DNA from: Escherichia phage vB_EcoM_Goslar
Sequence record: NC_048170.1
Direction: 5' to 3' (one strand)
Length of the DNA stretch: 64,000 nucleotides
The notes beneath the pieces are model-generated. The model was not told the origin of the DNA. It saw only the letters and a program-made list of their open reading frames with translations, and did no database searches. Shown here one piece after another: positions 15,826-43,438 of the stretch. The stretch's first letter is position 1. Every line of letters begins with the position of its first letter. A program made the translations under genes and the position numbers.

Positions 15826-16719
15826 TTAATCAGCAGTGTTATAACCGAATACTGCTTTACCGTAGGTGTGGGTACCGTTAGCTAATGACAGCACCAACAC
15901 ATGGTTGTACGTAGCGTTAACACCATTGTCGGTAGAACTGGTGGTAGCACCGTTATAGACAAAGGTAGCTGTTTGCAGATTGGCTTTCAGCTCGGTGATG
16001 ATCTCATCACTTACACCGGTCTGCTCTTTGATCAGCGTGGTCAGGTTACCTGCCAGGCTTTCATTGATCTTGGTTTCGTTATTGGTAATCCCCTGTAAAC
16101 CTGCAGTGTAGGTGCTGAAGTCTAACGGATAGGTTAACAGACGTGCTGACGTTTTGGTACCATCGCCTTCATCAACGTAGGTTAAGTTACCCAGGTTGGT
16201 AACCTTGATGATGTTAGCCAGATCCAGCGTAGTGTTATAAACTTTAACTTGAACAGAGCCATACCACGCCAACGAATCTTCTTTGGCTTCCAGGGTGATC
16301 GTCTGGATACCATGCTCGTTGAAGGTAACCGGATTAGATAACGTATCGGCTTTGATGTCTTTATCTTTATCCAGGAACTTCTCACCGGTCGGCGTGATCA
16401 TACCGTAGCGTTGAGCTACAAGGTCAACCACATCACCGATGGTGGTGTCAGCAGTAACGTTAACACGTACAGCGATTTTCTGGAACCACTTAGCCAGATC
16501 CAGACGATGGTAGGTAACATCGCGGTTATTGAAGTAAGGGGTACCTTCACCAGGGCTAAGCGTTAAAGTTGCGTCTGGAGCAGAATCACTTTTGGATTTA
16601 AGGACGTATTTAAGGTCGGTATATTTGAAGTTGGCACCAGTGTCAGTGTTGAGTTTGTTAATCTCATCAACGATAAGTTGCCAAGGTGTTTTTAAAGTAA
16701 GCGATACTTGAGTTGCCAT
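15826..16719 (-). CDS. virion-type protein, paralog family A (YxRxD and LAWxGSV motifs)
   Basis: Contains TYHRLDLAKWF and LAWYGSVQVKV shared with four other ORFs; optimal-codon-rich; SD GAGGT. Confidence 0.55.
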   Translation of the reverse strand: MATQVSLTLKTPWQLIVDEINKLNTDTGANFKYTDLKYVLKSKSDSAPDATLTLSPGEGTPYFNNRDVTYHRLDLAKWFQKIAVRVNVTADTTIGDVVDLVAQRYGMITPTGEKFLDKDKDIKADTLSNPVTFNEHGIQTITLEAKEDSLAWYGSVQVKVYNTTLDLANIIKVTNLGNLTYVDEGDGTKTSARLLTYPLDFSTYTAGLQGITNNETKINESLAGNLTTLIKEQTGVSDEIITELKANLQTATFVYNGATTSSTDNGVNATYNHVLVLSLANGTHTYGKAVFGYNTAD

Positions 16720-16861
16720 TTTCTACCTCTATGGTTGTTACATCACTCTCAAAAGATGTAAGTGTTTACAGAAATCAGTATATTTTATATTAATGTAAAT
16801 ATTATGGAGAACGACTCCGATTCTCCTTTTCGACCATCAAAAAATCAGAGGATACACAATC

Positions 16862-17404
16862 ATGGCCTTAGACTTTAACAAAGCAGCAAAATCCCTTCTG
16901 CTTGATCTTATCAACACCAAAGCAACCCGTTCACTGGCCGAACAAGAACTGCAGTTCGGTACTCCGGCGGCATCTTTCGAACATTCTAAGAACACCGTTA
17001 TTCAGCTGGACGCTGCGCCTGAAGCAGAAAACCTGCAGGGTACTCAGCAGTTCTACTACGATCGTCTGGCTCTGTCTGACGTTTTCGCTGATGTAACCGG
17101 CGATGTTACTTTCGAACTGCCGCACGGTACCGACAGCATTCAGGCTTCTGAACTGGTGAACAAACTGGTCACCAAATTCGGCCTGGCTTCACTGAACGGT
17201 GAAATCAAAGAAGAAACCTTCCAGCTGTCTGGAGGTACTGTTGGTCAGGTAACTCTGAATGCGATCGAGAACGGCCTGGTATATACCGGCACTCTGCAGG
17301 TTGCTCTGACCTATGCAGCAGCACCGAAAGACCAACTGGCAACCGTTCTGGCGGATAACGTAGCTGATGGCTTCGTGAAACCGACCGTTAGCGTTGTTGG
17401 CTAA
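16862..17404 (+). CDS. short paralog of family A, predicted highly expressed
   Basis: QFYYDRLALSDVF and LVYTGTLQVAL motifs; strongly optimised codons (CTG, CGT, ACC, GGT, GAA); SD GAGGA 9 nt upstream. Confidence 0.6.
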   Translation: MALDFNKAAKSLLLDLINTKATRSLAEQELQFGTPAASFEHSKNTVIQLDAAPEAENLQGTQQFYYDRLALSDVFADVTGDVTFELPHGTDSIQASELVNKLVTKFGLASLNGEIKEETFQLSGGTVGQVTLNAIENGLVYTGTLQVALTYAAAPKDQLATVLADNVADGFVKPTVSVVG

Positions 17405-17603
17405 TAAGCACATAGAGCAATAGTATGGGTTTTGTACAGCTCGGCTATTGCTCTTCTACAATTTGGTTGTAACAATCTGCGTGGTTGCACGCTTATCTTT
17501 CTCATTGAGCGCTTCGTATGAAGCGTGGTGTTGAAAGGGTTGTGGATCTCCTCAAGCGGCCAGGGACCCAGACCAACCTGAATAAACACAAACAAACCTT
17601 AAG

Positions 17604-17637
17604 CCCCTCCTCAGCCCTTATCGGGTTGGGGAGGGGT
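17604..17637 (+). terminator. conserved stem-loop terminator (plus-sense copy)
   Basis: cccctcc-tcagccc-ttat-cgggttg-gggagggg followed by cttatacgtctttatg; downstream of the 16862..17404 gene. Confidence 0.55.
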
Positions 17638-17699
17638 CTTATACGTCTTTATGCGTTTCGTTCGTTCTGGAGCGTTTTAGGGCGGTTTACGACAGGGTT

Positions 17700-18335
17700 T
17701 TATTCAACACTGAAACCATTCAAACAGATAGCTTCATAACGCTTACGTTCACGACGTTTACGCGCCTGCCAGCCGTAAATAAACTTCTCGTCTTTCTCAC
17801 GACGTTCAGCTAATTCGATGTAATAGGTGCTCTGCATATCCAGCATCGCATCGATGAGATAATCCTTACCGGTTGCGCCACGCTTAGCGATATAAGCATC
17901 AAGAGCCGCCAGTGTTTTGGGGCCCATTGCGCCATCAGCGTCGATATCTTTCCAGTAAGTTTGACGGTTGTTCATGACGTTCAGGTAACGCTGGAGGTTC
18001 TTAACCGCAACCGTTTTACCTGCATTGATACCCAGGTCAAAGAGACGGTCAGCTAAAAACACAGAACGTTTCATGACGTCATCAAGTTTCATTTTATCCC
18101 AGAAATGGGTCTTGTAGATAAAGAACGCCATTTCCGTGGTAAGGTTACGCATGTTACCGTTCCAGCCGAATTTCGTTTTCAGCGTGGTTTTGTATTGATC
18201 AGCAAGCGCTTGCGTAATGCCGTGGTTTGTACATTTTCCGCTGTCGTCTGGGTCATCAACATACCCGCCTTCAACATCGGTTTTGTCGCGAATGATGAAT
18301 TCGCAGGTAAAATCTTTTTCAGTAATCTTAGCCAT
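17700..18335 (-). CDS. endolysin, GH108-type lysozyme with peptidoglycan-binding domain
   Basis: N-terminal EFIIRDKTDVEGGYVDDPDDSGKCTNHGIT matches the GH108 catalytic region; C-terminal half consistent with a PG-binding domain; SD GAGGAG. Confidence 0.7.
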   Translation of the reverse strand: MAKITEKDFTCEFIIRDKTDVEGGYVDDPDDSGKCTNHGITQALADQYKTTLKTKFGWNGNMRNLTTEMAFFIYKTHFWDKMKLDDVMKRSVFLADRLFDLGINAGKTVAVKNLQRYLNVMNNRQTYWKDIDADGAMGPKTLAALDAYIAKRGATGKDYLIDAMLDMQSTYYIELAERREKDEKFIYGWQARKRRERKRYEAICLNGFSVE

Positions 18336-18461
18336 TAGAACTCCTCGTTGGAATAACGATTTAGAGGAACAGGAAGGGTCTAGAACGCGATAAACGATTT
18401 AATCCAGGCAAACCCCAGGTTAAACTTTTCGAAGCGTTACAACGCGTTCTAGAACGTTGAA

Positions 18462-20510
18462 TTAAATACCCTTGGTTCCTTTCACGTGATGTGCGATTTC
18501 TTCAACCATTGCACGCAGAGCACGAAGCTGTTGGTCGTGTTCGTACCAACCACCTAACAGAACCCCGCTATACACCATGGTGTCAAGACTTAACAGTCCT
18601 TTATCTGATACGTTGATCATTTCAGGGAACTGTTCTTGAACACGCTGTGCGATAACACCGATCTTCTCGACATCAGGATCGTAGTTGTGACGGAAACGGG
18701 CAAGCCCACTGCGCGCCATTTCACGTAAACGTTCACTGAGAGATTCCGGATGATCTTTCAGATAACGAATGTCGTGTTTACTACGTTCATCCGAGCGAAT
18801 GTAAGCGTTAGGAACATCGATATTGCTGTTGAAGTACAGCGCACTACCACCGCCTGCAGAGTTCCCCCAATAGAAGCGTGTGATCTCACCGCCGCCATTT
18901 TCCGTGATGATAACATGTTTACCTAAACGCGTACCACCATTACCATCAACGAAGACCAGTTTGTTTCCGCTGTAAGAACCCCAGAACAAGCGTGTATCGA
19001 TGATGTGTGTTGCAGCGAGACGGGCGTTACGTGGTGTAGAATACACGGTGTTAACATCTTGCTGCGCATGTGCATCGGAAGCGATACCATAGTTCTGTAC
19101 GTTACCCAATCCCACCTGCGCTTTCGTAACAGCGTGAGGGTTATCCCGACGGTTAGCGTGAGCGTTAACCAGATCACCCGCTAATTTCTGAATTGCCCAG
19201 TTGGTAGACTGTGGTGTCATGTAACGGTTCGTTGCAGAACCACCTTGCGCTTCAGCTTGGTTAGCGGTTGGGTAGTTCTCAACACTTCCTAACCCTACTT
19301 GTGCTTTAGACACTTGGTGTGGGTTATTCTTGTCAGCGATATGCGCATTAAGCGGAACTAACGCAAAGGTCTCAATGGACGCTTTGGTTGTGTTCGGTGC
19401 CATTAATCGGTTAGCTGCAACACCGGCACGCGCTTCTTCTTCAGAAGCCATTGGGTAGTCTTGCACATTCCCCAACCCAACCTGCGCTTTGGTTACCCTG
19501 TGTGGGTTGTTGTAATCGGCTTTATGCGCATTAAGTGGGATCAATGCGAACTGTTCAATCGATGCAGCGGTGCGTAGCGGCGTCATGAAACGGTTGTTCG
19601 CTGTTCCGGCTTTCGCCTCTTCATCCGAAGCGGTCGGGAAGTTATCAACGTTCCCAAGGTTAACCTGTGCTTTGGTGACGCTATGTGGGTTATCCCGACG
19701 GTTAGCATGCGCGTCGACCAGATCACCCGCCAGTTTAGCAATCGCCCAGCCAACCGTCTGTGCGGTCATGTAGCGGTCAGGTGCAGTACCGGCTTCTGCC
19801 TCCGCCTTGTTTGCGGTAGGATAGTTCTGTACGTTACCTAGTCCGACTTGGGCTTTTGTTACTTCGTGTGGGTTATCGGTACGGTTAGCATGCGCGTAAT
19901 GCAGATCGGTCAGATCTTTATCCGCCGCTTGCATGTCTTTGCGTAGCTGATCGATTGCCGCCCAGAGACGGTTATCGGACGCAGCATCACCGATAAGTAT
20001 TGCGGCTTTTAACGAATAGATCGCTAAGCAAAGATGTTCGGTACCGTAAATAGCACTAACGTGGTGGATGTGTGGCTCAGGCGGATAAAGTTCCGGTTTG
20101 TTCTTGATGTCATCCCAGTTGATCGGACGATCGTCAAGTTTGAGTTCTTCGATAGCCTGATATAACGCGTCAATAAGACTTACGTAAACACCACCGATGA
20201 TACGATAGTCGTTAACTAACGTCCCCTCGATATCATCGTTGATAATGGCGATGGCTGCACAGATTTCTTTACCCGCGTAAAGCGTTGCATCCTGGTACAA
20301 GAAAATGGGTTTATAATCCACGCCTCGTACCAGTGTCTTACCGGTAAGCTTTTCAGTGATGACCAGACTTTCGGTGAAGAACGGTCCGCCATCAAGGGCG
20401 TAACATTTATTCTCGGTTCGTGGAACGGTATGCTCTTCACCAACGATGTGGTTGCTGGCGAGTGTACCGGTCCAGTCCTCGGGGTACTTCAGGGTAATTG
20501 GTGTCGACAT
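18462..20510 (-). CDS. tail fibre protein with repeat array and C-terminal peptidase-S74 chaperone domain
   Basis: At least six repeats of NPHxVTKAQVGLGNVxNY (about 40-aa period); C-terminal ~110 aa contain S-D-E-R-S-K fitting the S-D-x-x-x-K self-cleavage site of S74 domains. Confidence 0.7.
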   Translation of the reverse strand: MSTPITLKYPEDWTGTLASNHIVGEEHTVPRTENKCYALDGGPFFTESLVITEKLTGKTLVRGVDYKPIFLYQDATLYAGKEICAAIAIINDDIEGTLVNDYRIIGGVYVSLIDALYQAIEELKLDDRPINWDDIKNKPELYPPEPHIHHVSAIYGTEHLCLAIYSLKAAILIGDAASDNRLWAAIDQLRKDMQAADKDLTDLHYAHANRTDNPHEVTKAQVGLGNVQNYPTANKAEAEAGTAPDRYMTAQTVGWAIAKLAGDLVDAHANRRDNPHSVTKAQVNLGNVDNFPTASDEEAKAGTANNRFMTPLRTAASIEQFALIPLNAHKADYNNPHRVTKAQVGLGNVQDYPMASEEEARAGVAANRLMAPNTTKASIETFALVPLNAHIADKNNPHQVSKAQVGLGSVENYPTANQAEAQGGSATNRYMTPQSTNWAIQKLAGDLVNAHANRRDNPHAVTKAQVGLGNVQNYGIASDAHAQQDVNTVYSTPRNARLAATHIIDTRLFWGSYSGNKLVFVDGNGGTRLGKHVIITENGGGEITRFYWGNSAGGGSALYFNSNIDVPNAYIRSDERSKHDIRYLKDHPESLSERLREMARSGLARFRHNYDPDVEKIGVIAQRVQEQFPEMINVSDKGLLSLDTMVYSGVLLGGWYEHDQQLRALRAMVEEIAHHVKGTKGI
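18465..18800 (-). other. predicted S74 self-cleaving chaperone domain (C-terminus of the fibre)
   Basis: YIRS|DERSKHDIRYL with Ser and Lys spaced as in the endosialidase/T5 pb1-type chaperone domain. Confidence 0.55.
19040..19880 (-). repeat. in-frame coding repeat array (about 120-nt units) in the fibre gene
   Basis: Six to seven consecutive copies of the NPHxVTKAQVGLGNV unit with flanking Ala/Gly-rich linkers. Confidence 0.6.
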
Positions 20511-20523
20511 AACCTGGAGGTCC

Positions 20524-23127
20524 TTATAACGTGACTGTACCTAATTTGGTTGTCTTATTGAGATTAATGACAGAGATCTGGGTATCGCTGGTCGTAATCG
20601 TTCCGATATTAACGCGCTGTCCTTTATCATCTTCTTGCTTGTAGATGGTTAACTCCAGCTCTAACTGATTACCATTAGGAACAACGGAAACGTACCATGT
20701 TTTATTACCTGGTGAACTATTATAGTCTTTTAGGTTATAATGGCCTTTAGGTAAGGTCATGACCTTACCGGCAAACAAGCAAGTGATGTCTTCGTTGATG
20801 TAGATATCGTAACCGGAAGCAGCAACGACCGTAGAAACCATGTAACGGTTTTTAACAGCGAGAGCTTTATATTCCGCAACGGAATTACCGACAGCGTTAA
20901 AGACCTGCCCGCCATTACCCATCACCGTAGAGACTGCGGTATCAACATAACCGATTCCCCACACCGGATGCACGTTCCAGCGATAGCCGCTTGTCTGTAG
21001 GTAAGCATACATACCTTCAAATGCGATGGTTGTCCAGTTCCCATCGTTTTGTCGTCCAGCTCGGAACTGATAGGTGTTCTGGTTCCCTGCAGACTGACGG
21101 GAGTACGGAACATGTCCCGCAACAAGCCATCCATCACTAACCTTCTTGTAAGCTAATACACCCCAGGCAGCATCCTGACTACCGATATTTGTTGAATCGG
21201 GTTCTTCGACATAACCCAGCAATTTGGTTACGCCCGTCACCGTAATAGCGCCTTTACGCGCGGATACGGTAACCTCTGCAGCGATTCGTCCATGTACGCG
21301 TGTGCTGGTATTACAGCCAGCAACAAACAGGATACAGGGTGCGTTTGTACCATCTGGAGGCACTGCTAACGCATGTCGCCACTGACTTACCCCTGATAAC
21401 TTAGATCCTGTATATGCGTTCCACACAAGCTGACCGCCTGCCTGCAGATTCGCTGCGGTTATGCTGATGGCTTCACCGGATGGTGCAAGTTTGGTTGCAT
21501 CGTAACCGATTTTGCTTGTTAGGACCGCATCGGTTAAATAAGACCCGCTAACCACCGTATTGTCATCGCTTAAATGCACGGTTAGGAAAGGTAACGACAT
21601 TTGACCCGTTCTAACCACCACGTTGTTGGAAGGCGGAAAACCGTAAACATTAATACCCTCGCCCTGATAATGGTAATTGAGGTTCCAGTCATAGGTCACT
21701 AGACGAGCCTCAAAATTACCCTGTCCGCCAGCCGTACGCGAGTTAACAAAAACCTTGTTCTTAGAAAAGAAACCCAGGTAACCATGGGACGCGAGTGCAC
21801 CAACGACGCGATCCCCGACGCTTTTCCAGTTTGAATCGTACTGTCTTCCACCGGTCGGGCCGAGTTTGGCGAGTTCGTCGAACACGTTTCCAGAGAAACC
21901 ATTGATGGTGTACGATCTCGCTTGGGGGGCGGATAAGTTGTCGTTTTGGATAAGGGCTACCTGACCACGTTCGTTGATTTCGATATTCCCGGTACCGTTA
22001 CCCGAACCCCATTGCCAGAAACCATCGTTATATGCACTTGTCCCCTCCGTTGTGTTGGAAGGTCCTATCCAGTCAATACCGCTGCTGGTTGACGTGTAAG
22101 TCGATTGTCCAGCGCCTGGGTTCATGCTGTAACTGTTGTTGGCGGTTTCGAAATCCAGATAAAACTGATGCAGCCCATTTTTATTCTTGTTATTGCGGTT
22201 GTTCGTCCACCACGCCGAAGCAATCAGAATGCGTGCTTTAGTGCCTTTGGTTGCTGCAAGCAGACGAATCTGGGCACGCCAGACGATTTGACCGATCCCG
22301 TCAGAAGGGAAATCGTTCGCAGTTATGCGGTTGCAGACAATCATCTCGGCGCTGTTGCTTATTGCCGTTCCTTCTATCGTTCTACCGCTAATATTCGTAA
22401 GCTGTGTAGCTGCTACGCTGCCACCGCTGGGACCGATGGAAGATTTAGTTACGGTATAAACATTTAAGTAGAGTTTATAACTGTTAGTGCCAGCAATAGC
22501 GATGTAGATTTTACCGTTAATTTCCCAACAGCAGACATTCGGTGACGTATCAACAAAGTTGGCAAGACTACCATCGAGATACATGGCGACGTGTTTGGAT
22601 GCATCAAACGTTCCGTCTGTCAATGCGATAAACATTTTAGGGCTGCTACCGTCTTCAAAAGCAGCTTGACCTAACATGATACCGTTCTGGTGACAGTATA
22701 TCGCCGTAGGAATACGGTCGAGCGTCGCGGGTTCATAACGACGACTGGTTGGGATAACTTCGGTGATTTGCCCGTTTTGATCTGTTTTACAGATAACGTA
22801 GTAAACCCCTTTCTTTACGCTGTTTGTTGCTGAACGCAATAACACGATGGTACCGTCCGATTCACGACATACGCCGTAACGACGGTATCTGTCGTTTAGG
22901 GAGATAGCACCATCAGCGGAGCCTTCAATTGCCAGAGGAAAATAACTTTGGTCCCCAACCTGTTCGATATCGGTTACGCCAATATCGATGTATTTTTCCA
23001 TCTCGGCGTTGAACTCAGCGGTACTGTAGGCCCCAAGATCACTCGCTTTTAGTCCCGTTGGGTTGTCGCGACTGGCGATACGCGTAGTAACGCTACTCAC
23101 CAGTTCGCTGAACTTTTTCATTGCCAT
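20524..23127 (-). CDS. tail fibre or tail spike protein (receptor-binding candidate)
   Basis: 867-aa ORF inside the fibre module, Gly/Ser/Thr/Asn-rich beta-type composition; SD GAGGTG. Confidence 0.45.
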   Translation of the reverse strand: MAMKKFSELVSSVTTRIASRDNPTGLKASDLGAYSTAEFNAEMEKYIDIGVTDIEQVGDQSYFPLAIEGSADGAISLNDRYRRYGVCRESDGTIVLLRSATNSVKKGVYYVICKTDQNGQITEVIPTSRRYEPATLDRIPTAIYCHQNGIMLGQAAFEDGSSPKMFIALTDGTFDASKHVAMYLDGSLANFVDTSPNVCCWEINGKIYIAIAGTNSYKLYLNVYTVTKSSIGPSGGSVAATQLTNISGRTIEGTAISNSAEMIVCNRITANDFPSDGIGQIVWRAQIRLLAATKGTKARILIASAWWTNNRNNKNKNGLHQFYLDFETANNSYSMNPGAGQSTYTSTSSGIDWIGPSNTTEGTSAYNDGFWQWGSGNGTGNIEINERGQVALIQNDNLSAPQARSYTINGFSGNVFDELAKLGPTGGRQYDSNWKSVGDRVVGALASHGYLGFFSKNKVFVNSRTAGGQGNFEARLVTYDWNLNYHYQGEGINVYGFPPSNNVVVRTGQMSLPFLTVHLSDDNTVVSGSYLTDAVLTSKIGYDATKLAPSGEAISITAANLQAGGQLVWNAYTGSKLSGVSQWRHALAVPPDGTNAPCILFVAGCNTSTRVHGRIAAEVTVSARKGAITVTGVTKLLGYVEEPDSTNIGSQDAAWGVLAYKKVSDGWLVAGHVPYSRQSAGNQNTYQFRAGRQNDGNWTTIAFEGMYAYLQTSGYRWNVHPVWGIGYVDTAVSTVMGNGGQVFNAVGNSVAEYKALAVKNRYMVSTVVAASGYDIYINEDITCLFAGKVMTLPKGHYNLKDYNSSPGNKTWYVSVVPNGNQLELELTIYKQEDDKGQRVNIGTITTSDTQISVINLNKTTKLGTVTL

Positions 23128-23139
23128 TATTCACCTCGA

Positions 23140-23625
23140 TTAAATAGGCGAGTCGGGTAGCTGACCATCATCGATCTCGATGGTGGCCACCTTACGTGTT
23201 GCAGCAAGATGTGATGTACCCTGGATTTTGTTCCAGGTGCCGATACGCATGGCGTTTTTGTAGCTACTATCGCTATCGTTCAGCGTGTAAACAAAACCGC
23301 TATCGGTTACGGCAAGATAGATCCAGCCCACAGACTCACTGATACCAGACACATCCAAAGTCGTTGCTGGTACTGTCCCTACCACCGTGTTGTATTCCGC
23401 TGTACCTTGACCAATGCTGATCCGCCCGTTGCTGTAACTGGCTGCCGGAAGCGTTTTATTTCGACTGAAGAAAAGAAACGGAAGGTAACGCTGGGTAACA
23501 AGCGGTGCAAGTTTAGGAGCCACTTCGGTCTTAACGTAGACATCTGTTTGTTCTGGCGTTACCTCGTGAGGGTTCTTTTGGGTAAGATACGTCCCCCATT
23601 CAGAAAGCAGTGTTGATAGCTTCAT
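23140..23625 (-). CDS. small fibre-associated protein (single fibre-repeat unit)
   Basis: N-terminus LTQKNPHEVTPEQTDVYVK resembles one unit of the fibre repeat. Confidence 0.45.
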   Translation of the reverse strand: MKLSTLLSEWGTYLTQKNPHEVTPEQTDVYVKTEVAPKLAPLVTQRYLPFLFFSRNKTLPAASYSNGRISIGQGTAEYNTVVGTVPATTLDVSGISESVGWIYLAVTDSGFVYTLNDSDSSYKNAMRIGTWNKIQGTSHLAATRKVATIEIDDGQLPDSPI

Positions 23626-23629
23626 GCGG

Positions 23630-24139
23630 TTACCCCATGTAACGTTTTTGGCCGAGGATGAAGACTTTGTTGAATACCACCGAAGTGATTCCTGTTGCGT
23701 TACAGCTCACCTGCCCGACGCGAATTGCTGTTGACGTATCGACCCCAGCACTACTCTGCCAGATCCAATCGATCGATCCGTCTTTCTGACGAATGAAAAG
23801 ATAACCGGTTTTGTTCGCCCAGTCGGAAGTAAGTTTTTTGATGTCTAGCGTTCCTTTCGCCAGAATATAGTCGGTACCGGCGATCATGACGGGTATTTCA
23901 GGATACGAGATTACCGTACCGCTGGCAGTAACGTTGCTGATGCGTTCGCTACGAATATCGGTACAGTCACCGAAATACGCTACGGGGAGTATCCCCTTAG
24001 GGAGCTTTTTGCCGATTCTCGTATCGATCGTGTTTTTATCGGGTGCGCCGATTTGTGCTGCGGTGACTTGGTTAGGGTTATCCTTCCTTGTGTACCAAGT
24101 CGTCATGCGAGCACCTAATTCACTCATTTTTGTGCCCAT
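23630..24139 (-). CDS. small fibre-associated protein (single fibre-repeat unit)
   Basis: N-terminus RKDNPNQVTAAQIGAPDKN; track start is GTG, ATG at 24137-24139 has SD TAGGA. Confidence 0.45.
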   Translation of the reverse strand: MGTKMSELGARMTTWYTRKDNPNQVTAAQIGAPDKNTIDTRIGKKLPKGILPVAYFGDCTDIRSERISNVTASGTVISYPEIPVMIAGTDYILAKGTLDIKKLTSDWANKTGYLFIRQKDGSIDWIWQSSAGVDTSTAIRVGQVSCNATGITSVVFNKVFILGQKRYMG

Positions 24140-24196
24140 TTTCACGTCCTATCGAAAAATAAAAAGAAGGAAAGGTGGGTAGAACCCACCCATCCG

Positions 24197-26350
24197 TTAT
24201 AACGTTTCGAAGTCGGTTGCTTTGATAACCGCGTTGAAGTTGGCAAGGAATTCCTTAAGCAGTGCTTGGAAGACATCACGAAACGCTGTGTTCGTCTGCA
24301 AGCTGGTTAAATAATCGTTCTTAAGGTAATCGCTCAGCTTACCGATCTTCTGCATCTTCTCGCCGTCTTGGTTCTCTCCAGGTTCTTGGCTGTTGATGTT
24401 AACCCATTTGATCCCTTCGAGATCGCCATCGGCAAGGAAGTTGGCGGGTGTCTCATCGTCGTTCAGGATTTTAATCGTATCACTGGATTCAATGCCACCG
24501 TAAGCTTCCAGAAGCTGGTTGACTGTTAGCTTATTGGTGTTGATTGAACCATTGACACCATCGATACCGATGCCTGCACCTGTGATGGATGTCGCCGAAA
24601 GATCGATCGGTCCGGTTAACTTACCACCGTTGATCGGTAACGCACCAACTTGCTCAGCGGTGTGTGTATGGTCAGCTAACGCCGCAAACGCCACGATAGA
24701 CTTATATGTCGAATACGGCGTCATATACGCTGATTGGTTGGTGTTGTCAGCCGCTTCAGTATCGGTAGCGATATTAAAGTTCTGCACGTTGCTGAGACCG
24801 ACCTGCACCTTCGTTACTTCATGCGGGTTGTTCTTATTGACAACGTGTGCTGCAAAACCATCACCAGCTAAAGCAGTGATTGCCGCTTTTGTCGCAGCCG
24901 GTGTCATATAGCGGTTGGTTGCTTCACCCGTTTGCGCCTCTTCGTCGGAAGCAACAGGATAGTTCTCAACGCTTCCCAAACCGACCTGAGATTTTGTTAC
25001 TTGGTGTGGGTTTTCGGTATTCGCAATATGACTACTGAACCCTTGACCCGCCAGTTGCTCGATTGCGTAACGAACAAGTATTGGTGTCATGTACTTGTTG
25101 TTAACTTGACCATCGATAGCTTCTTGGGTGGTGGCAACCCCGAAGTTTTGCACGCTCCCCAACCCAACTTGCGCTTTCGTAACAGCGTGGGGGTTATTGG
25201 TGTTACCGATGTGATCGGTAACCGTTGGGGTGATTAATCCTGCGATAGCGGCTGCCGTGGTCGCAGGGGTCATGTATTTATCGTTAGCAACACCCGCAGC
25301 AGCTTCTACGTTAGATGCTACACCGTAGTTCAATACATTTCCTAACCCAACCTGCGCCTTGGTTACCCCGTGGGGGTTGTTCTTGTCTCCGGTATGGGTT
25401 GTCAACGTAGCGTTAACGTTATCGATACGCGTGCTTAAGCTATCAGTGATTGCTTTGATTGCGGCTCGTACACCCGCTGGTGTTGTGTACAGATCTGTGG
25501 CCGTACCGGTAATGGTTGTATTACTATCGGCTACACCGTAGTTCTCAACGTTTCCGAGTCCCACCTGGGCTTTCGTTACCTTGTGTGGGTTGTTGTAGTT
25601 GCTGATGTGCGCAGCAGCACTATCACCACTCAGGTTAGCGATCATCTTACGCGTCATCGCCAACGTCATGTACAGATTTTCACCGATGGTTTCCAGATCG
25701 CTCTCGGTCGCCGTTGTGAAGTTCTGAACATTTCCTAACCCAACCTGCGCCTTGGTTACCCCGTGGGGGTTATCGCGACGATTCTCGTGCTGCAGCAATG
25801 CAGTCATTGCTTTATTGAACCCTTCTTCAAGCGGTTCTTTCAATGATTCGATTGCAGCCACCACATCGTCCCACGTCATTGTGTCGGTTTCGACATTATG
25901 TTGGTGGTTGATTGGCGGGAATACGGAAGGAACGTCAGCAACCTTTTCCCAGAACGTAACGCGAGGGTCGTAAAGGTTGTTGGCTAAAACGTTAAGAATT
26001 TGTTGTTGATCAAGTGTAAACTCACCCCCCAGTGAATAGTAGTTCAGTTGCAACTGTCCACTGAATGCGGTGTCCAACAGCATGATGGAACCGTATAATT
26101 CCAGGCCGGTCAGCGCAGCCATGGCACGGAAGGGGTGAGTGCATAAAAAGTCAACGCCTTCTTCCAGATACGCGTTTGTTTCAGGGTTGTAGATCTTTAA
26201 CCCATTGCGAAAATATGGCGCGTATTTAGGAACGAGAAAGTTAAATCCGGTCCCCGTGGAAGGACGGACAGTGACGAGTTCTTCTGGAACCCATGCGCCA
26301 TCCAAATTCCCCTGCGGGTTATACGGAAGGCGTTTAATTTCATCTGTCAT
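24197..26350 (-). CDS. tail fibre protein with repeat array
   Basis: At least eight repeats of NPHxVTKAQVGLGNVxN between residues ~190 and 540; C-terminal domain differs from the S74-containing fibre. Confidence 0.65.
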   Translation of the reverse strand: MTDEIKRLPYNPQGNLDGAWVPEELVTVRPSTGTGFNFLVPKYAPYFRNGLKIYNPETNAYLEEGVDFLCTHPFRAMAALTGLELYGSIMLLDTAFSGQLQLNYYSLGGEFTLDQQQILNVLANNLYDPRVTFWEKVADVPSVFPPINHQHNVETDTMTWDDVVAAIESLKEPLEEGFNKAMTALLQHENRRDNPHGVTKAQVGLGNVQNFTTATESDLETIGENLYMTLAMTRKMIANLSGDSAAAHISNYNNPHKVTKAQVGLGNVENYGVADSNTTITGTATDLYTTPAGVRAAIKAITDSLSTRIDNVNATLTTHTGDKNNPHGVTKAQVGLGNVLNYGVASNVEAAAGVANDKYMTPATTAAAIAGLITPTVTDHIGNTNNPHAVTKAQVGLGSVQNFGVATTQEAIDGQVNNKYMTPILVRYAIEQLAGQGFSSHIANTENPHQVTKSQVGLGSVENYPVASDEEAQTGEATNRYMTPAATKAAITALAGDGFAAHVVNKNNPHEVTKVQVGLSNVQNFNIATDTEAADNTNQSAYMTPYSTYKSIVAFAALADHTHTAEQVGALPINGGKLTGPIDLSATSITGAGIGIDGVNGSINTNKLTVNQLLEAYGGIESSDTIKILNDDETPANFLADGDLEGIKWVNINSQEPGENQDGEKMQKIGKLSDYLKNDYLTSLQTNTAFRDVFQALLKEFLANFNAVIKATDFETL
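24730..25780 (-). repeat. in-frame coding repeat array in the second fibre gene
   Basis: Same repeat family as 19040..19880. Confidence 0.6.
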
Positions 26351-26381
26351 GATGCGCCCTTTACAAGTTGTTAGTAAGTAT

Positions 26382-26400
26382 GGGATACCCTGGGGTATCC
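26382..26400. promoter_or_regulatory. palindromic operator-like site in a divergent intergenic region
   Basis: GGATACC-ctgg-GGTATCC between the divergent starts at 26350 and 26455. Confidence 0.3.
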
Positions 26401-26454
26401 TGTGTTAACAGCGGTAAAATATTACTGTAACTATAAAATAAGGGGGCCTCTCCC

Positions 26455-27735
26455 ATGTATACATTGGTAAAAACTTACGGGTTACCCGTAGGTTCTGGCA
26501 CGGCCTGGACAGCGCTTGAGGCGGGTGAAAGTGTCCTGAGTACGTTGTTCTCAACGTATCAAAAACTCAAGATCCAGGTCCACGAAAGCTATGCTGACCA
26601 GCAACAAGTTATTGATCTGTACACATTTCAATCCGAGCTTCAAAACAGCAGCGATACGCTCAATGCGTGGTTGAAAGCGAAATCGGATGCGCATACCAAC
26701 CTTCGAGGACAGCCTGGCGAGCTGTCGATTAAAACCCACAAGCTTTATTGTCACGACGCTATTACTGTAGGCTTTCTCCCTAAAGTCGGTAATAGTGGCT
26801 ATCATCCGAGCAACGCGATCCCTGAGTCGGAACGCACTGATATCCTGTTGACGAAAGCGAATACGAATTACGAAAATATCGGCAAACACTGCTTGTTCAC
26901 CGTAGGCGGTTATGTTCATCCTCACGTCTACGGTAAAGACGTCGGTGTCTATATCCAGGGTGGGTTCAAGACGGCACAGCGCAGCCAAGAAAACGATATC
27001 GGCATGATTGATTTTAGCCGTATCGGGAGTTTGGAAATCCATGCTATCACAGAAGAGATGATTGCTGATTCCACGAAGCTCTTGCCGTATAAGGACGAGA
27101 TGTACTTGCGGTTACCGCGCAAGGTCGCCGAAGATGAAACCGTCGCGCTGGTGTTCGGGGGATATTTACATCTTCTTGACGATTGTTACACGATCGTTAG
27201 CGACACGACAGCGAAAATAAACTGCATTAACATGTTTCTCTATGAACGGTACTTCCGTTCCCGTAAATACCTTGATCTAACATCTCTTGGTATTCTGTTG
27301 AACGAAGAAGACCCACAGTCCGACATTGTTGCCAATCGTTTATTGTCCGATAAAGCATTAAAAGCGTGGGTGACGCATCCTTGCAGTTTCTGGGTGTATA
27401 TCAAAGCAACATCAATTCAGGTTACGCAAGAACCTTTACCACGAAGCGGTGTACCGGGACAGTATTTCTTAGGTAAGAAACCGGAAGGATTGATTCGGGC
27501 CGATCTCGGTGAGTTACCCGCTTACGTGCAGACCTATGAAAAACCGTTATGGGTACTTCACTCGCGCTGGGGACTTCGTAAGAACATGTTGTTTGAAAAT
27601 ACGTTGTACAAACATACGCGCGTTAAGCGACTTAACGATACGCCTTATCTTCACCAGGTCTGGTTGGAAACGCATGCGACGTTGCAGACAGTACACAAGC
27701 TCGAATTGATCGATTCCAGTCAGAAAAACAAATAA
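26455..27735 (+). CDS. hypothetical protein (divergent from the fibre gene)
   Basis: 426-aa ORF, ATG with AAGGGGG SD; upstream TATAAAATA-containing AT-rich stretch. Confidence 0.5.
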   Translation: MYTLVKTYGLPVGSGTAWTALEAGESVLSTLFSTYQKLKIQVHESYADQQQVIDLYTFQSELQNSSDTLNAWLKAKSDAHTNLRGQPGELSIKTHKLYCHDAITVGFLPKVGNSGYHPSNAIPESERTDILLTKANTNYENIGKHCLFTVGGYVHPHVYGKDVGVYIQGGFKTAQRSQENDIGMIDFSRIGSLEIHAITEEMIADSTKLLPYKDEMYLRLPRKVAEDETVALVFGGYLHLLDDCYTIVSDTTAKINCINMFLYERYFRSRKYLDLTSLGILLNEEDPQSDIVANRLLSDKALKAWVTHPCSFWVYIKATSIQVTQEPLPRSGVPGQYFLGKKPEGLIRADLGELPAYVQTYEKPLWVLHSRWGLRKNMLFENTLYKHTRVKRLNDTPYLHQVWLETHATLQTVHKLELIDSSQKNK

Positions 27736-27786: not shown

Positions 27787-28692
27787 TTATGCTACATATA
27801 ACGTCAGATAACCGTCGATGAGCGTATTCATCACACTGAGCTGAAGTACGACAGCTTTACTAACATCTGTACGTACACCGAACGGTAGTGTTTTGAATTG
27901 CTCTGGATCGGCTATTACTTGCGCATTCTGCAAGTTGAGCGGTCCAGGCATTGCTGATAATACCCAGCGATCGTTGACCATAAGGCCGTCGATCTCTTCA
28001 GAGAGACCCAATTGCAGTGCGTTCATTTCTGCGATTAGTGCCTCCGATTGCGTATCGCCTGAGGTTAGCGTATACCCATCGGTAAGCGATGCCAGAACAC
28101 CAGCAGATACGAACCAGTTGTACGAAACAATAGCGCCTGGGAGTTTACTGCTATCTCGATCGATGATATAATTCAACCCAGCCAACATATTGTTGCGAAC
28201 GAGGTTGTTGAGGTCGTTATGTCCTGAGGTTAACTCAACAAGTAACTGACCAACCCATACTTGGTTACCGGGTTTAGGTGTTATCACAACCTGTATCGGT
28301 GACTTGGATTTATCCAGATCCGCGTCGACAATCTCGGTTTTGTTGAGAAGGATACCGTACGTCGATGCTAAGACAGGTAGGATCTCAGAGACCTTGGTTA
28401 GTGCATCTAAGGTTTCGATCTCGATAGGCCAGCGGTGCTGTCCGCCAGACCAAGTACCTAGTTTACCAAGATCGATGCGGTTATAATAGATGTCGACAGA
28501 GTTCACCAGCCCTGAACCCGGTTGGGGATGCACGGTTAACTTGCTGTTACGCTTGTACCCGGTGCTTTCAGAAGCCTCACCGATAACCAGTTTATCCAGC
28601 GTTACGCCTCGAGCATCGAAATCGCTATGCTTTCGAATCAGCCGAAAGAGGATTTCTTTCGATTCTAACCCTAGGATTTCACTGTACTCCAT
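27787..28692 (-). CDS. virion-type protein, paralog family A
   Basis: IYYNRIDLGKLGTW motif and overall similarity to 29609 and 30471 ORFs; SD AAGGGG. Confidence 0.5.
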   Translation of the reverse strand: MEYSEILGLESKEILFRLIRKHSDFDARGVTLDKLVIGEASESTGYKRNSKLTVHPQPGSGLVNSVDIYYNRIDLGKLGTWSGGQHRWPIEIETLDALTKVSEILPVLASTYGILLNKTEIVDADLDKSKSPIQVVITPKPGNQVWVGQLLVELTSGHNDLNNLVRNNMLAGLNYIIDRDSSKLPGAIVSYNWFVSAGVLASLTDGYTLTSGDTQSEALIAEMNALQLGLSEEIDGLMVNDRWVLSAMPGPLNLQNAQVIADPEQFKTLPFGVRTDVSKAVVLQLSVMNTLIDGYLTLYVA

Positions 28693-28707: not shown

Positions 28708-29592
28708 TTACGGTAGGATTTCTGCGCCCGTCGGGCCTGCCTTACGAGCTTCCAACGCACCAAGGTCGTATTTCAGTGTCAGCGTATCGTTGGTAGTATA
28801 AAGGTTGTGGTAAGTCGAAATCAGATCGGTAACCTGCGCGCCGACGATTTCGTTCATGTCGAAGGCCGAACCTTGACCATCATCAGCACGAACGATTTTA
28901 TCGCCAGCAGAGACCATCCCGATTTCAGAAATAACCGCGTACTCTTCACCACCTTCGGTGAGTTTAGCCACATTGAGATATTCGTTAATATCCCACGGCG
29001 TCCAAACCAAAGAGACTTTACAGCTGTAGTCGTAGTACTCTCCGGTCGCTACCAGAATTCCGGTTGTTGGGATATCCGGTCGGGTGGGGTTGAGGTTCTT
29101 GTCGGTTGGGTGCCATTCGATGGTCTGAGCGACGCCGTCGACGTATTTGGTATAACGCATGGAGCGGACAACGTTATCGAAATCGATGCGACGACCGTAA
29201 TAACAGATATACTTTTTACCGCTTTCCAGTGTCTCAATACGACGTAACCCAAATTTAGCGCGTTCGTCTGTGGTCAAATCGTTACCAACTTCACGCATCA
29301 CGAACGGCTTGATTTTCCACGGTGAAAGATCGCTTGCTTCGTGAGCGATCGGCATCGAGGAAGGGATACCGTTAGCGTTGCGGATGAATTCATGACCTTG
29401 GTTGCCGATACAGAAGTAACGTACAGCAGGATTACCCTCGGGGTAAACCTTTGATTGAATCTGAAGCTTTTCATTCAAGGTGCTGTGTTCTTCCCATGCA
29501 TGAGGAAGACCGAGCGTAAGGTTAGTTTGTACTTGACCGCCGATAATCGTACGGACGATACGATCGGTAGCACGGATTTGTGTAGAAGCCAT
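28708..29592 (-). CDS. hypothetical structural-type protein
   Basis: 294-aa ORF embedded between family A paralogs; SD AGGAAAAG. Confidence 0.45.
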   Translation of the reverse strand: MASTQIRATDRIVRTIIGGQVQTNLTLGLPHAWEEHSTLNEKLQIQSKVYPEGNPAVRYFCIGNQGHEFIRNANGIPSSMPIAHEASDLSPWKIKPFVMREVGNDLTTDERAKFGLRRIETLESGKKYICYYGRRIDFDNVVRSMRYTKYVDGVAQTIEWHPTDKNLNPTRPDIPTTGILVATGEYYDYSCKVSLVWTPWDINEYLNVAKLTEGGEEYAVISEIGMVSAGDKIVRADDGQGSAFDMNEIVGAQVTDLISTYHNLYTTNDTLTLKYDLGALEARKAGPTGAEILP

Positions 29593-29608: not shown

Positions 29609-30460
29609 TCAGTTATATTGCATCAACAGGATACCGCCGTAGTTCGTGCAGTAATCTTGGCTAAGCGTAACGATAACAGCGTTAGCGAACGCAGGGTTAA
29701 CAGGATAACCCTGTGCGATAAGTTCTGTTGTTTTACCGGTTGCAAGCACGGTGGCTCCGTAAAGGTTGTTTTCGTCTTCACGGCCGTTATAAACCCATGG
29801 GGTTGGCGCAACGTTGTTGAATAAGCTAACCAATGCGCTTAAGTTGCCACCAACTTTTAACCCGGCGAGATCGGAACGGATAGCTGTACAGTCTATAGCG
29901 TAACTGTAGACCAATGCCTGGATACGATTTGCGGTGTAGTACGGGAAATTGAGACCGGTCATCACCGTGGACTTCATCATCCCCGCAATATCGCGTGCGC
30001 TATCGAGGAGGTAGAACGTGACACTTCCCGTCCAAGCCAATCCGGTTGTTTTCAACTCTACGGTGTGAGGGAACGGATATTCATCACCTCGTACAATCGG
30101 AGAATCGACGCAGCTATCCTGATCGATAACGATTCCGTACGTTGATTGAATCAGAGGGATAAGATCGTGCGTTGTTCTAACCCCGGCATCGATAGCAAGC
30201 TTCGGTTCCATTCCCAAGAAGAAGTCTTGAATAGGGATACGATCGTACCATACGTAGCTGCTTTCACGGTATTGTGCCGGTGTTACTGTTGCCGAAGGGG
30301 ATACCTTAGCGCGAGTGTTTCGGCTATACGCGTGGTTTCCGTTTTCAGCAACATCCGTGATATCAAGTGCATCGAAGTTAAAGTCGAAGTCAGGATTGGC
30401 TGCCTGAATAAGTTCAGCGACCAGTACTTTAGGACTTTTGTTTAACAATTTCTGACTCAT
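29609..30460 (-). CDS. virion-type protein, paralog family A
   Basis: YVWYDRIPIQDFFLG, LAWTGSVTFYLLDS, C-terminal DYCTNYGGILLMQYN; SD AAGGAA. Confidence 0.5.
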   Translation of the reverse strand: MSQKLLNKSPKVLVAELIQAANPDFDFNFDALDITDVAENGNHAYSRNTRAKVSPSATVTPAQYRESSYVWYDRIPIQDFFLGMEPKLAIDAGVRTTHDLIPLIQSTYGIVIDQDSCVDSPIVRGDEYPFPHTVELKTTGLAWTGSVTFYLLDSARDIAGMMKSTVMTGLNFPYYTANRIQALVYSYAIDCTAIRSDLAGLKVGGNLSALVSLFNNVAPTPWVYNGREDENNLYGATVLATGKTTELIAQGYPVNPAFANAVIVTLSQDYCTNYGGILLMQYN

Positions 30461-43339: not shown

Positions 43340-43438
43340 CTGACTTATGTATCACGGTGCCGGATGAATGTCCGGTGCAATGAAACCATCTGCAACGTTG
43401 TCATCAAGAATATCATCCAACGAAGCAGCTACGGTAGT

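Follow-up and report, generated by a model that had tools for sequence, protein, structure and literature searches.

The Peripheral Tail-Fibre Locus of Escherichia Phage Goslar: Two Paralogous Repeat-Shaft Proteins, a Peptidase_S74 Domain and Three Putative Separately Encoded Distal Heads

The Fibre Locus

The window analysed here, a 64,000-nucleotide (64-kb) stretch of the genome of Escherichia phage vB_EcoM_Goslar (sequence record NC_048170.1), contains between positions 18,462 and 26,350 five tightly packed, co-oriented open reading frames (ORFs), all on the minus strand, which together with a neighbouring divergent gene constitute the peripheral tail-fibre locus of this chimallivirus; the locus, gp30 / gp29-gp28-gp27-gp26-gp25, is homologous to the gp130 / gp131-gp135 fibre locus of phage phiKZ. 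Exact-sequence look-up identified ORF A as Goslar_00025 (YP_009820710.1; UniProt name “Peptidase S74 domain-containing protein”) and ORF C as Goslar_00027, and the calculated masses of all nine ORFs from 15826 to 27735 match Goslar gp22 to gp30 in Table S4, the virion mass-spectrometry (MS) table of the 2026 Goslar preprint. The five ORFs labelled A, B, C, D and E are gp25, gp26, gp27, gp28 and gp29, respectively, and the divergent gene is gp30. A first-pass annotation of this DNA, made by a model from the letters and an ORF list, had called the region a tail-fibre module carrying an S74 chaperone domain; this overall call is correct and agrees with the phiKZ homology and with the label “Tail fiber” given to gp25 and gp29 in a 2026 Goslar preprint, while the repeat period, the N-terminal domains and the mechanism of variation that it proposed are corrected below. 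The two ORFs singled out for their long arrays, 18462..20510 and 24197..26350, do exist on the minus strand and hold 5 and 6 tandem units. The genes and their parts are as follows, with lengths in amino acids (aa):

26455..27735, plus strand: gp30, 426 aa, divergent; match to phrog_3337, mass match to HOV27_gp030; homologue of phiKZ gp130
24197..26350, minus strand: gp29 (E), 717 aa; gp131-like N-terminal anchor, helix, six 61-aa units, HTHTAEQVGALP junction-like segment, C-terminal domain of ~150 aa
24677..25801, minus strand: array of six 61-aa units in gp29, residues 184-558; NPH motifs at 194, 254, 325, 386, 447 and 508
23630..24139, minus strand: gp28 (D), 169 aa from the ATG at 24139; helix and junction unit, small β domain homologous to the gp26 C-terminus
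23140..23625, minus strand: gp27 (C), 161 aa; helix and junction unit, C-terminal domain from a rare family
20524..23127, minus strand: gp26 (B), 867 aa; helix and junction unit (residues 1-75), variable all-β propeller-like body, conserved C-terminal domain common with gp28
20839..22909, minus strand: exchangeable central cassette of gp26, about residues 73-763
18462..20510, minus strand: gp25 (A), 682 aa; gp131-like N-terminal anchor, five 61-aa units, short β tip, Peptidase_S74 domain
18990..19904, minus strand: array of five 61-aa units in gp25, residues 203-507; NPH motifs at 213, 274, 335, 396 and 457
18795..18989, minus strand: distal tip of mature gp25, residues 508-572; predicted receptor-contacting end after cleavage
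18465..18794, minus strand: Peptidase_S74 / intramolecular chaperone domain of gp25, residues 573-682, 12.7 kDa; predicted dyad Ser573/Lys578

In local phmmer comparisons, gp30 matches phiKZ gp130 (E = 1.6e-28, residues 1-338 against 1-339), gp29 matches gp131 (E = 1.1e-46, residues 8-335 against 9-331) and gp25 matches gp135, gp134, gp133 and gp131 at 1e-25 to 1e-37, its residues 10-284 aligning with residues 6-284 of gp135 at 1.4e-33; residues 3-49 of gp26 match the 110-aa gp132 at 1.1e-4. The gene order, including the divergent gp130-type gene, is the same in Goslar and phiKZ. The divergent arrangement is kept in Serratia phage PCH45, in Xanthomonas phage RTH11 and in L011, the most distant of the relatives compared below, and the order of the module is also the same in PCH45 and RTH11. 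The gp131-like N-terminal domain is present in gp29 and gp25, while the phmmer comparisons detected no such anchor in gp26, gp27 or gp28. Both ends of the two long proteins had been described as different, which holds for their C-terminal parts; their N-terminal domains are homologous to each other (25% identity, E = 6e-11). gp25 and gp29 are thus paralogues, each built of a gp131-like anchor followed by a shaft of 61-aa units, and gp29 matches PHROG 2163 and 13857.

All five proteins were found in purified Goslar virions by the published mass spectrometry, where they fall into two abundance classes. The median copies per virion are 87 for gp25 and 75 for gp29, against 14.3 for gp28, 13.8 for gp27 and 12.8 for gp26; gp30 stands at 18. 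All five genes are under purifying selection, with ratios of nonsynonymous to synonymous divergence (dN/dS) of 0.04-0.15. A reading as pseudogene fragments was considered and rejected on these ratios and on the presence of the products in virions.

The 61-Residue NPH Repeat

A six-frame regular-expression scan of the 64 kb placed the NPH motif five times in gp25, six times in gp29, once near the N-terminus of each of gp28, gp27 and gp26, and nowhere else. Within the two arrays the motif takes the form NPHxV(T/S)KxQVxL(G/S)(N/S)VxN, and the units follow one another at start-to-start spacings of 61 aa throughout gp25 and of 60, 71, 61, 61 and 61 aa in gp29; the period is therefore 61 aa (183 nt) and not the ~40 aa first proposed. 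Each unit has two parts, an NPHxV(T/S)KxQVxLxxV core that follows a conserved His and a second half of the form AxxxEAxxG....YMTPxxTxxAI. Over the 11 units the fixed positions are H, N, P, H, V, K, Q, V, L, V and A alone, so that the string NPHxVTKAQVGLGNVxN, initially given as invariant, describes a motif that is present in both arrays but varies among units at several positions.

Every unit matches the profile of units at E = 1e-27 to 1e-33, and a search with this profile found no comparable array in any other ORF of the window. Pairwise identity between units is 28-66% at the protein level and 38-67% at the DNA level, and it is because the units are so diverged in DNA that Tandem Repeats Finder detected no array in the module. 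Exact DNA runs common to two units reach at most 20 nt, save for a single run of 44 nt shared by units 1 (25728-25771) and 3 (25335-25378) of gp29 on the minus strand; this run is absent from the relatives, in which the longest is 22-26 nt, and suggests a recent short gene-conversion tract within the gp29 array.

The repeat is a common building block of phage fibres. It is a member of PHROG 2163, 13857 and others (both Goslar arrays hold at least two tandem units of ~61 aa), and 1,874 matches at E <=1e-10 were obtained among 8,000 candidates scored, while repeat-bearing proteins gave tblastn matches in more than 540 phage records. The full-length gp25 query was needed for the homologue search, since the C-terminal 212 aa alone, in a word-indexed search, returned two near-identical matches. 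The best 120 homologues carry 1-13 units each, with 61 aa as the dominant spacing (539 of the spacings measured), and the PCH45 and RTH11 orthologues carry 3-7. The NPH half of the unit has no match in Pfam, NCBIfam or PDB sequences, and a literature search with the motif string found nothing. The 61-aa NPH unit is thus very common, yet has neither a Pfam family nor a solved structure.

The Peptidase_S74 Domain of gp25

gp25 belongs to the Peptidase_S74 family. The Pfam profile PF13884 matches residues 573-631 with 26.0 bits (E = 1.1e-5; gathering threshold 22) and reaches 28.5 bits on the isolated C-terminal 212 aa; residues 420-672 also match PHROG 1699 (“long tail fiber distal subunit”) at 3.9e-14. 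The motif SDERSK occupies residues 573-578 (coordinates 18777-18794), 110 residues before the C-terminus, a distance that lies within the 98-123 residues separating the corresponding Ser from the C-terminus in 21 homologues. The best PDB sequence match of the gp25 C-terminus is gp37 of phage S16 (6f45), in which SDRRIKKDI aligns with SDERSKHDI. In an alignment of 20 homologues at 17-25% identity, S573, D574 and K578, as well as G618 and A621 of a downstream GxxAQ motif, are invariant. The chaperone domain anticipated by the first-pass annotation is hence well founded, both by its profile score and by the conservation of the Ser/Lys dyad. A monomer model of gp25 made with AlphaFold2 (AF2) from the 20-homologue alignment has predicted local distance difference test (pLDDT) values of ~78-97 over residues 603-682; when the S74 model was compared with the PDB by Foldseek, the top three matches were chains of the MyRF ICA domain, a homologue of this chaperone in eukaryotes, with probabilities of 0.84-0.97, template-modelling (TM) scores of 0.36-0.50 and weak E-values of 0.06-0.13. 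The S74 domain is also carried by PCH45, RTH11 and ~20 of the 120 best homologues.

In endosialidase and in the T5 fibre protein pb1, the polypeptide is cut immediately before the catalytic Ser. A cut at the equivalent position of gp25 would therefore convert the 74.8-kDa full-length protein into a mature form of 572 residues and 62.1 kDa and a fragment of 110 residues and 12.7 kDa, and the fragment of ~110 aa predicted earlier from the position of the motif fits this length. Self-cleavage between Arg572 and Ser573 would follow from family membership. Peptides from residues 573-682 include HNYDPDVEK, IGVIAQR, VQEQFPEMINVSDK, GLLSLDTMVYSGVLLGGWYEHDQQLR, AMVEEIAHHVK and DHPESLSER. In the published Goslar virion peptide list (peptides AAA to ELK), 8 of 12 expected peptides of the mature region are present and neither of the two from residues 573-682, counts that suggest compatibility with release of the fragment but are not significant. 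In a 2021 survey (PMC7824862), “group 2” was the only jumbo-phage group for which S74 was listed; PCH45, RTH11 and the ~20 homologues mentioned above carry it nonetheless.

The Distal Modules gp26, gp27 and gp28

The single NPH element at the N-termini of the three remaining proteins differs from the units of the shafts. Against a profile of 795 array units, gp28 matches over 26 positions (1.4e-5) and gp27 over 11 (0.015), while the gp26 N-terminus gives no match; these N-termini are therefore not degenerate whole units. In phiKZ gp131, gp133, gp134 and gp135, the last NPH element lies immediately ahead of the distal domain and differs in form, reading NPHxVTAxQ(V/L)xxY(T/S)Kxx; the N-termini of gp26, gp27 and gp28 align with this form, preceding helix included. 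A junction profile built from phiKZ and PCH45 only matches gp28 at 8.7e-10, gp27 at 2e-6 and gp26 at 1.1e-4, and finds nothing in the other ORFs of the window beyond the common core of the gp25 and gp29 units. The source of the profile matters, as one made from the window's own units is too narrow, missing gp26 and barely finding gp27, whereas the junction profile from other phages resolves all three. In 24 of 119 homologues the last unit is of the junction form, which is found at just 2 of 721 internal positions. From the alignment and the profile matches, gp26, gp27 and gp28 are thus modules consisting of a helix, a junction and a distal domain, with neither anchor nor shaft. Two small ORFs had been said to begin with one degenerate repeat unit each; the N-terminal element is real, but it is the junction version, of which these two ORFs, gp27 and gp28, carry 11-36 residues (with an NP(H/N)xVTxxQ element) instead of a whole unit, and the same element, absent from the earlier description, also begins the 867-aa gp26 (20524..23127). 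A search of gp25 and gp29 with Pfam found no branching domain of the T4 gp10 type.

Beyond the junction, the AF2 model of gp26 is all-β with a mean pLDDT of 75. Its Foldseek matches in the PDB are generic propellers of the GH43 and WD40 types (probability up to 1.0, TM <=0.39), and therefore no enzymatic assignment is justified; strong matches, with TM of about 0.7, are found to “virion structural proteins”, themselves uncharacterised, from other jumbo phages. In homologues of 33-65% identity, residues 1-75 of gp26 are conserved at 66-84% and the body at 31-50%. The C-terminal domain of gp28 is homologous to that of gp26, and gp28 matches positions 888-971 of phrog_3573 as well as phrog_26864; in PHROG 3573, 7449 and 7557, the same distal domains are fused behind an anchor and repeats in other phages. 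gp27 belongs to a rare family, with 3 representative clusters at E < 1e-10 in 1.84 billion proteins, and its residues 16-45 match fibre repeat units.

Patchwise Variation among Relatives

The module was compared with corresponding loci of relatives, of which L002 and L003 are identical to the window, L001, L004, L005, L009, L010 and L012 share ~93-95% nucleotide identity over most of the module, and L011 is distant at ~50-63% protein identity. The first-pass annotation had proposed the repeat arrays as a hotspot of copy-number change and, through it, of host-range variation, and had named identical unit numbers across relatives as the outcome that would speak against the proposal. This is the outcome obtained: the arrays have 6 and 5 units in every relative compared, protein lengths are the same, the 60/71-aa spacing of the gp29 type is kept, and no array indel was found. 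The locus is indeed variable; the variation lies in the patchwise replacement of other segments and not in repeat number.

One of these patches is the central body of gp26 (~20839-22909), which is replaced in L009, L010 and L012 (43-74% nucleotide identity), while the first 72 and last 105 codons of gp26 and the neighbouring gp25 are 84-100% identical in these relatives. In L001, the C-terminal domains of gp28 and gp27 are replaced behind a first stretch of 42 residues that is unchanged in gp28 and has two substitutions in gp27. In L009 and L012, residues 501-550 of gp25 carry a cluster of 13 substitutions, most of it within the distal tip (residues 508-572); other stretches of 50 residues have 0-5. 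Synonymous divergence (dS) is 0.67 for gp25 residues 500-572 against 0.26 for residues 1-499. The tip aligns with the part of S16 gp37 that precedes its chaperone domain. In gp29, a stretch covering units 5-6 and what follows them (~24611-25060) is 77-87% identical in L001, L004 and L005. The raised dS in the variable patches points to import by recombination and not to local positive selection. In L011, the A-type gene directly adjoins the E-type gene, and its product has a C-terminus that differs after unit 5 and has no S74 domain.

At the edge of the module, L005 (an IMG/VR relative) carries a 1.16-kb insertion (L005 12207-13316) between the gp25 and gp24 homologues (window ~18341-18352), with a 369-aa Cys-rich ORF on the opposite strand that has an HNH-like motif, EAHHDNY...CRSCHRKVH, in its C-terminus; the insertion looks like a mobile homing endonuclease.

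Neighbouring Genes and Other Features of the Window

Two further features adjoin or interrupt the run of fibre genes:

24173..24191, minus strand: terminator-like hairpin with an 8-bp stem followed by a T-rich tail; consensus match
17700..18335, minus strand: gp24 lysin with GH108 and PG_binding_3 domains, directly downstream of gp25; Pfam match, mass match

The hairpin, GGGTGGGTTCTACCCACC with its T-rich tail, separates the gp29 stop codon from the start of gp28 within an otherwise operon-like run; the gp28 ATG is preceded 7 nt upstream by an AGGA ribosome-binding site. The divergent gp29/gp30 intergenic region contains a short tandem, partly palindromic TGGGATACCC element in 2.2 copies (26381-26402). 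gp24, annotated as an “endolysin”, is present in purified virions at ~76 copies, a level like those of gp25 (87) and gp29 (75), and may be a virion-associated, fibre- or baseplate-bound lysin instead of, or besides, a lysis enzyme.

Paralogues of the DUF7941 family lie on both sides of the fibre module, at 15826-16719 (-), 16862-17404 (+), 27787-28692 (-) and 29609-30460 (-), so that the fibre locus is embedded in a larger block of host-recognition genes. The first two are Goslar gp22 and gp23, described in the 2026 Goslar preprint as very abundant “fibre cloud” proteins of about 577 and 2,144 copies. The ORF at 28708-29592 corresponds in mass to the baseplate spoke protein gp32. Further along the window, a 636-aa ORF (43364-45274, +) runs antisense to the gene for the 740-aa major head protein (43439-45661, -; phrog_3231) and is probably a chance shadow ORF.

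Megablast of the module against phage, plasmid and complete E. coli genome collections gave no match, nor did megablast of 32 kb of the window in all (the module and a further 24 kb) against a collection of 50,697 phage records. Hundreds of assemblies of E. coli, Salmonella and Shigella isolates contain near-identical phage contigs (~235-245 kb), which is notable for a lytic jumbo phage; the protein clusters have 405, 326 and 195 members.

A Proposed Assembly and Its Alternatives

In phiKZ, twelve fibres dock beneath gp130, an outer-baseplate protein, and the base of each fibre, which has six gp131-like N-domains and a bundle of six helices, is interpreted as three copies of gp131 with one each of gp133, gp134 and gp135 (PMC13250141). 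By analogy with this arrangement, twelve docking sites under gp30 would take up the anchors of gp29 and gp25, probably in a mixed E3 + A3 base, and what appeared as “two fibres” may be two subunit types of a single heteromeric fibre, such as has been reported from phiKZ. With 87 and 75 copies, gp25 and gp29 are nearly equal in abundance, which is compatible with such a hetero-hexameric base. The S74 domain would drive folding of the gp25 trimer and afterwards detach itself by a cut at Arg572/Ser573 through the Ser573/Lys578 dyad, leaving a 62-kDa mature gp25 whose short β tip would be exposed as a receptor-contacting end. gp26, gp27 and gp28 would be distal heads made from genes of their own and attached to the fibre in trans by their N-terminal helix and junction, possibly with about one copy of each per site as a 1:1:1 heterotrimer. 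If the phiKZ number of 12 gp30 copies per virion applies, gp25 and gp29 amount to ~4-5 copies per site and gp26, gp27 and gp28 to ~0.75 each. Host range would then change by recombinational replacement of the heads and of the gp25 tip, while anchors, shafts and junction elements remain constant. Taken as a whole, this scheme of anchored gp29/gp25 shafts, a self-cleaving gp25, heads joined in trans and exchange of heads and tip is in our judgement the probable one. A narrower version, in which a constant gp29/gp25 trimer shaft under gp30 carries one gp26, one gp27 and one gp28, held together as a heterotrimer by their shared junction plug, with host range set by swaps of head cassettes, is offered tentatively; if it is true, the plug could be used to engineer the host range of jumbo phages.

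Several observations weigh against the proposed scheme. The case for trans-assembly of gp26, gp27 and gp28, which we infer, draws on motif homology and on label-free copy estimates, and where the copy number of a protein is known, estimates of this kind deviate from it 0.6- to 3.7-fold. Cleavage of gp25 is predicted from its sequence, the Foldseek E-value of the S74 model is weak (0.06), and the peptide count for the released fragment covers two diagnostic peptides. The A-type protein of L011 has a different C-terminus and lacks the S74 domain, so the chaperone is dispensable for this type of shaft. The propeller-like body of gp26 has no sequence similarity detectable by phmmer to the C-terminal propeller of phiKZ gp131. 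The proposed assembly draws on genes, virion MS and analogy with phiKZ, the cryo-EM density of the fibres and peripheral baseplate being unassigned in the 2026 preprint.

The homotrimer is the usual state of a phage fibre and the form on which S74 chaperones act, as in endosialidase and T5 pb1. On this ground, in the main alternative, gp25 and gp29 might be seen as two independent homotrimeric fibres, with gp26, gp27 and gp28 as separate small homotrimeric fibres or spikes on the baseplate, their NP element serving as a minimal one-unit shaft. Given the error of label-free quantification, the estimates of ~13-14 copies also fit the 18 expected from homotrimers at six sites (6 sites x 3), and the gp26-gp28 data are therefore compatible with this arrangement. 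We nonetheless regard it as unlikely: homologous N-domains of different paralogues occupy one docking site in phiKZ, none of gp26, gp27 and gp28 has the gp131-like anchor that mediates docking, and the three are nearly equal in abundance, each at ~0.75 of the gp30 value. The idea that the repeat arrays themselves generate host-range variation, by unequal or inter-gene recombination altering unit number and shuffling the ends, draws on the spread of 1-13 units across phage homologues (3-7 in the PCH45 and RTH11 orthologues), on the 44-nt run between units 1 and 3 of gp29, seen in this lineage only, and on the A-type C-terminus of L011, which differs after unit 5. It was rejected as very improbable in view of the constant unit number in all seven relatives examined, down to ~55% protein identity, the retained 60/71-aa spacing of the gp29-type array, the lack of indels in either array, the low DNA identity between units (38-67%, with exact runs of <=20 nt save the one of 44 nt) and the position of the breakpoints of the gp26 and gp28/gp27 replacements, which lie outside the arrays. 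As to gp27 and gp28, their size and their position directly after a fibre gene resemble those of Tfa genes, and they could accordingly be read as tail-fibre assembly chaperones of the lambda Tfa / Mu gpU type and not as structural heads. This identity was rejected as very improbable, because Pfam, PHROG and NCBIfam give no Tfa-family match for either protein, both are present in virions at the level of gp26, both have the N-terminal junction element in common with gp26, and the C-terminal domain of gp28 is homologous to that of gp26 and, in phrog_3573, 7557 and 7449, to domains lying inside long fused fibre proteins.

Significance

Alone among the parts of the Goslar virion, the fibres escaped resolution by cryo-EM, a gap that bears on host recognition by chimalliviruses. 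The analysis provides a domain-level parts list for the Goslar fibre locus, mapped onto the phiKZ fibre genes, which distinguishes constant segments (anchors, 61-aa shafts and junction plugs) from those that are naturally exchanged (the gp26 body, the C-terminal domains of gp27 and gp28 and the gp25 tip); such a list can be used for multimer modelling, for the fitting of unassigned density and for host-range engineering. Current understanding is not overturned, and databases already list the S74 domain and the “tail fiber” labels; the putative junction plug is the only part with real novelty.

Comparison with Known Systems

The second half of the 61-aa unit, (V/I)A(S/T)xxEAxxGxxxxxYMTP, resembles the IATQxExxAGTxxxxxxTPKK repeats of T4 gp34, the proximal subunit of the long tail fibre (PDB 9x3r), a likeness that is not significant (E = 2.1); no solved chain has anything corresponding to the NPH half. 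The chaperone domain of gp25 shares with the S74 domains of K1F endosialidase, the T5 L-shaped fibre protein pb1, S16 gp37 and MyRF ICA the Ser-x4-Lys dyad within SDxxxK, the downstream GxxAQ and a C-terminal site ~100-120 residues from the end. It differs from those of K1F endosialidase, T5 pb1 and S16 gp37 in being mounted on a shaft of the chimallivirus gp131 family and not on a β-helical spike or a T-even fibre.

The closest counterpart of the whole locus is that of phiKZ, where a divergent gp130-type gene is likewise followed by co-oriented paralogues sharing the gp131-like N-domain and the NPH unit, and where a unit of the junction form leads into the distal domain. The two phages differ in the number of anchor-domain proteins (four in phiKZ, two in Goslar), in the length of the arrays (2-3 units in the phiKZ paralogues, 5-6 in Goslar) and in the S74 domain, which the phiKZ paralogues lack. 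gp29 has no domain like the seven-bladed propeller of phiKZ gp131, and the gp26 body is not detectably related to it. phiKZ makes shaft and distal domain as a single polypeptide, whereas Goslar has separate genes for three distal modules; phiKZ gp132, a small anchor-less member consisting only of a helix and an NPH unit, is like the N-termini of gp26, gp27 and gp28.

A looser analogy is offered by the branched receptor-binding-protein systems of the Klebsiella phages KP32, K11 and KP34 (PMC13352976), whose secondary protein has a conserved N-terminal docking peptide: a short conserved N-terminal element is found on variable receptor-binding proteins beside a primary fibre, and heads are exchanged while the adaptor is kept. 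The likeness is one of organisation only, and the Goslar system differs from it in that its adaptor-like element derives from the shaft repeat itself.

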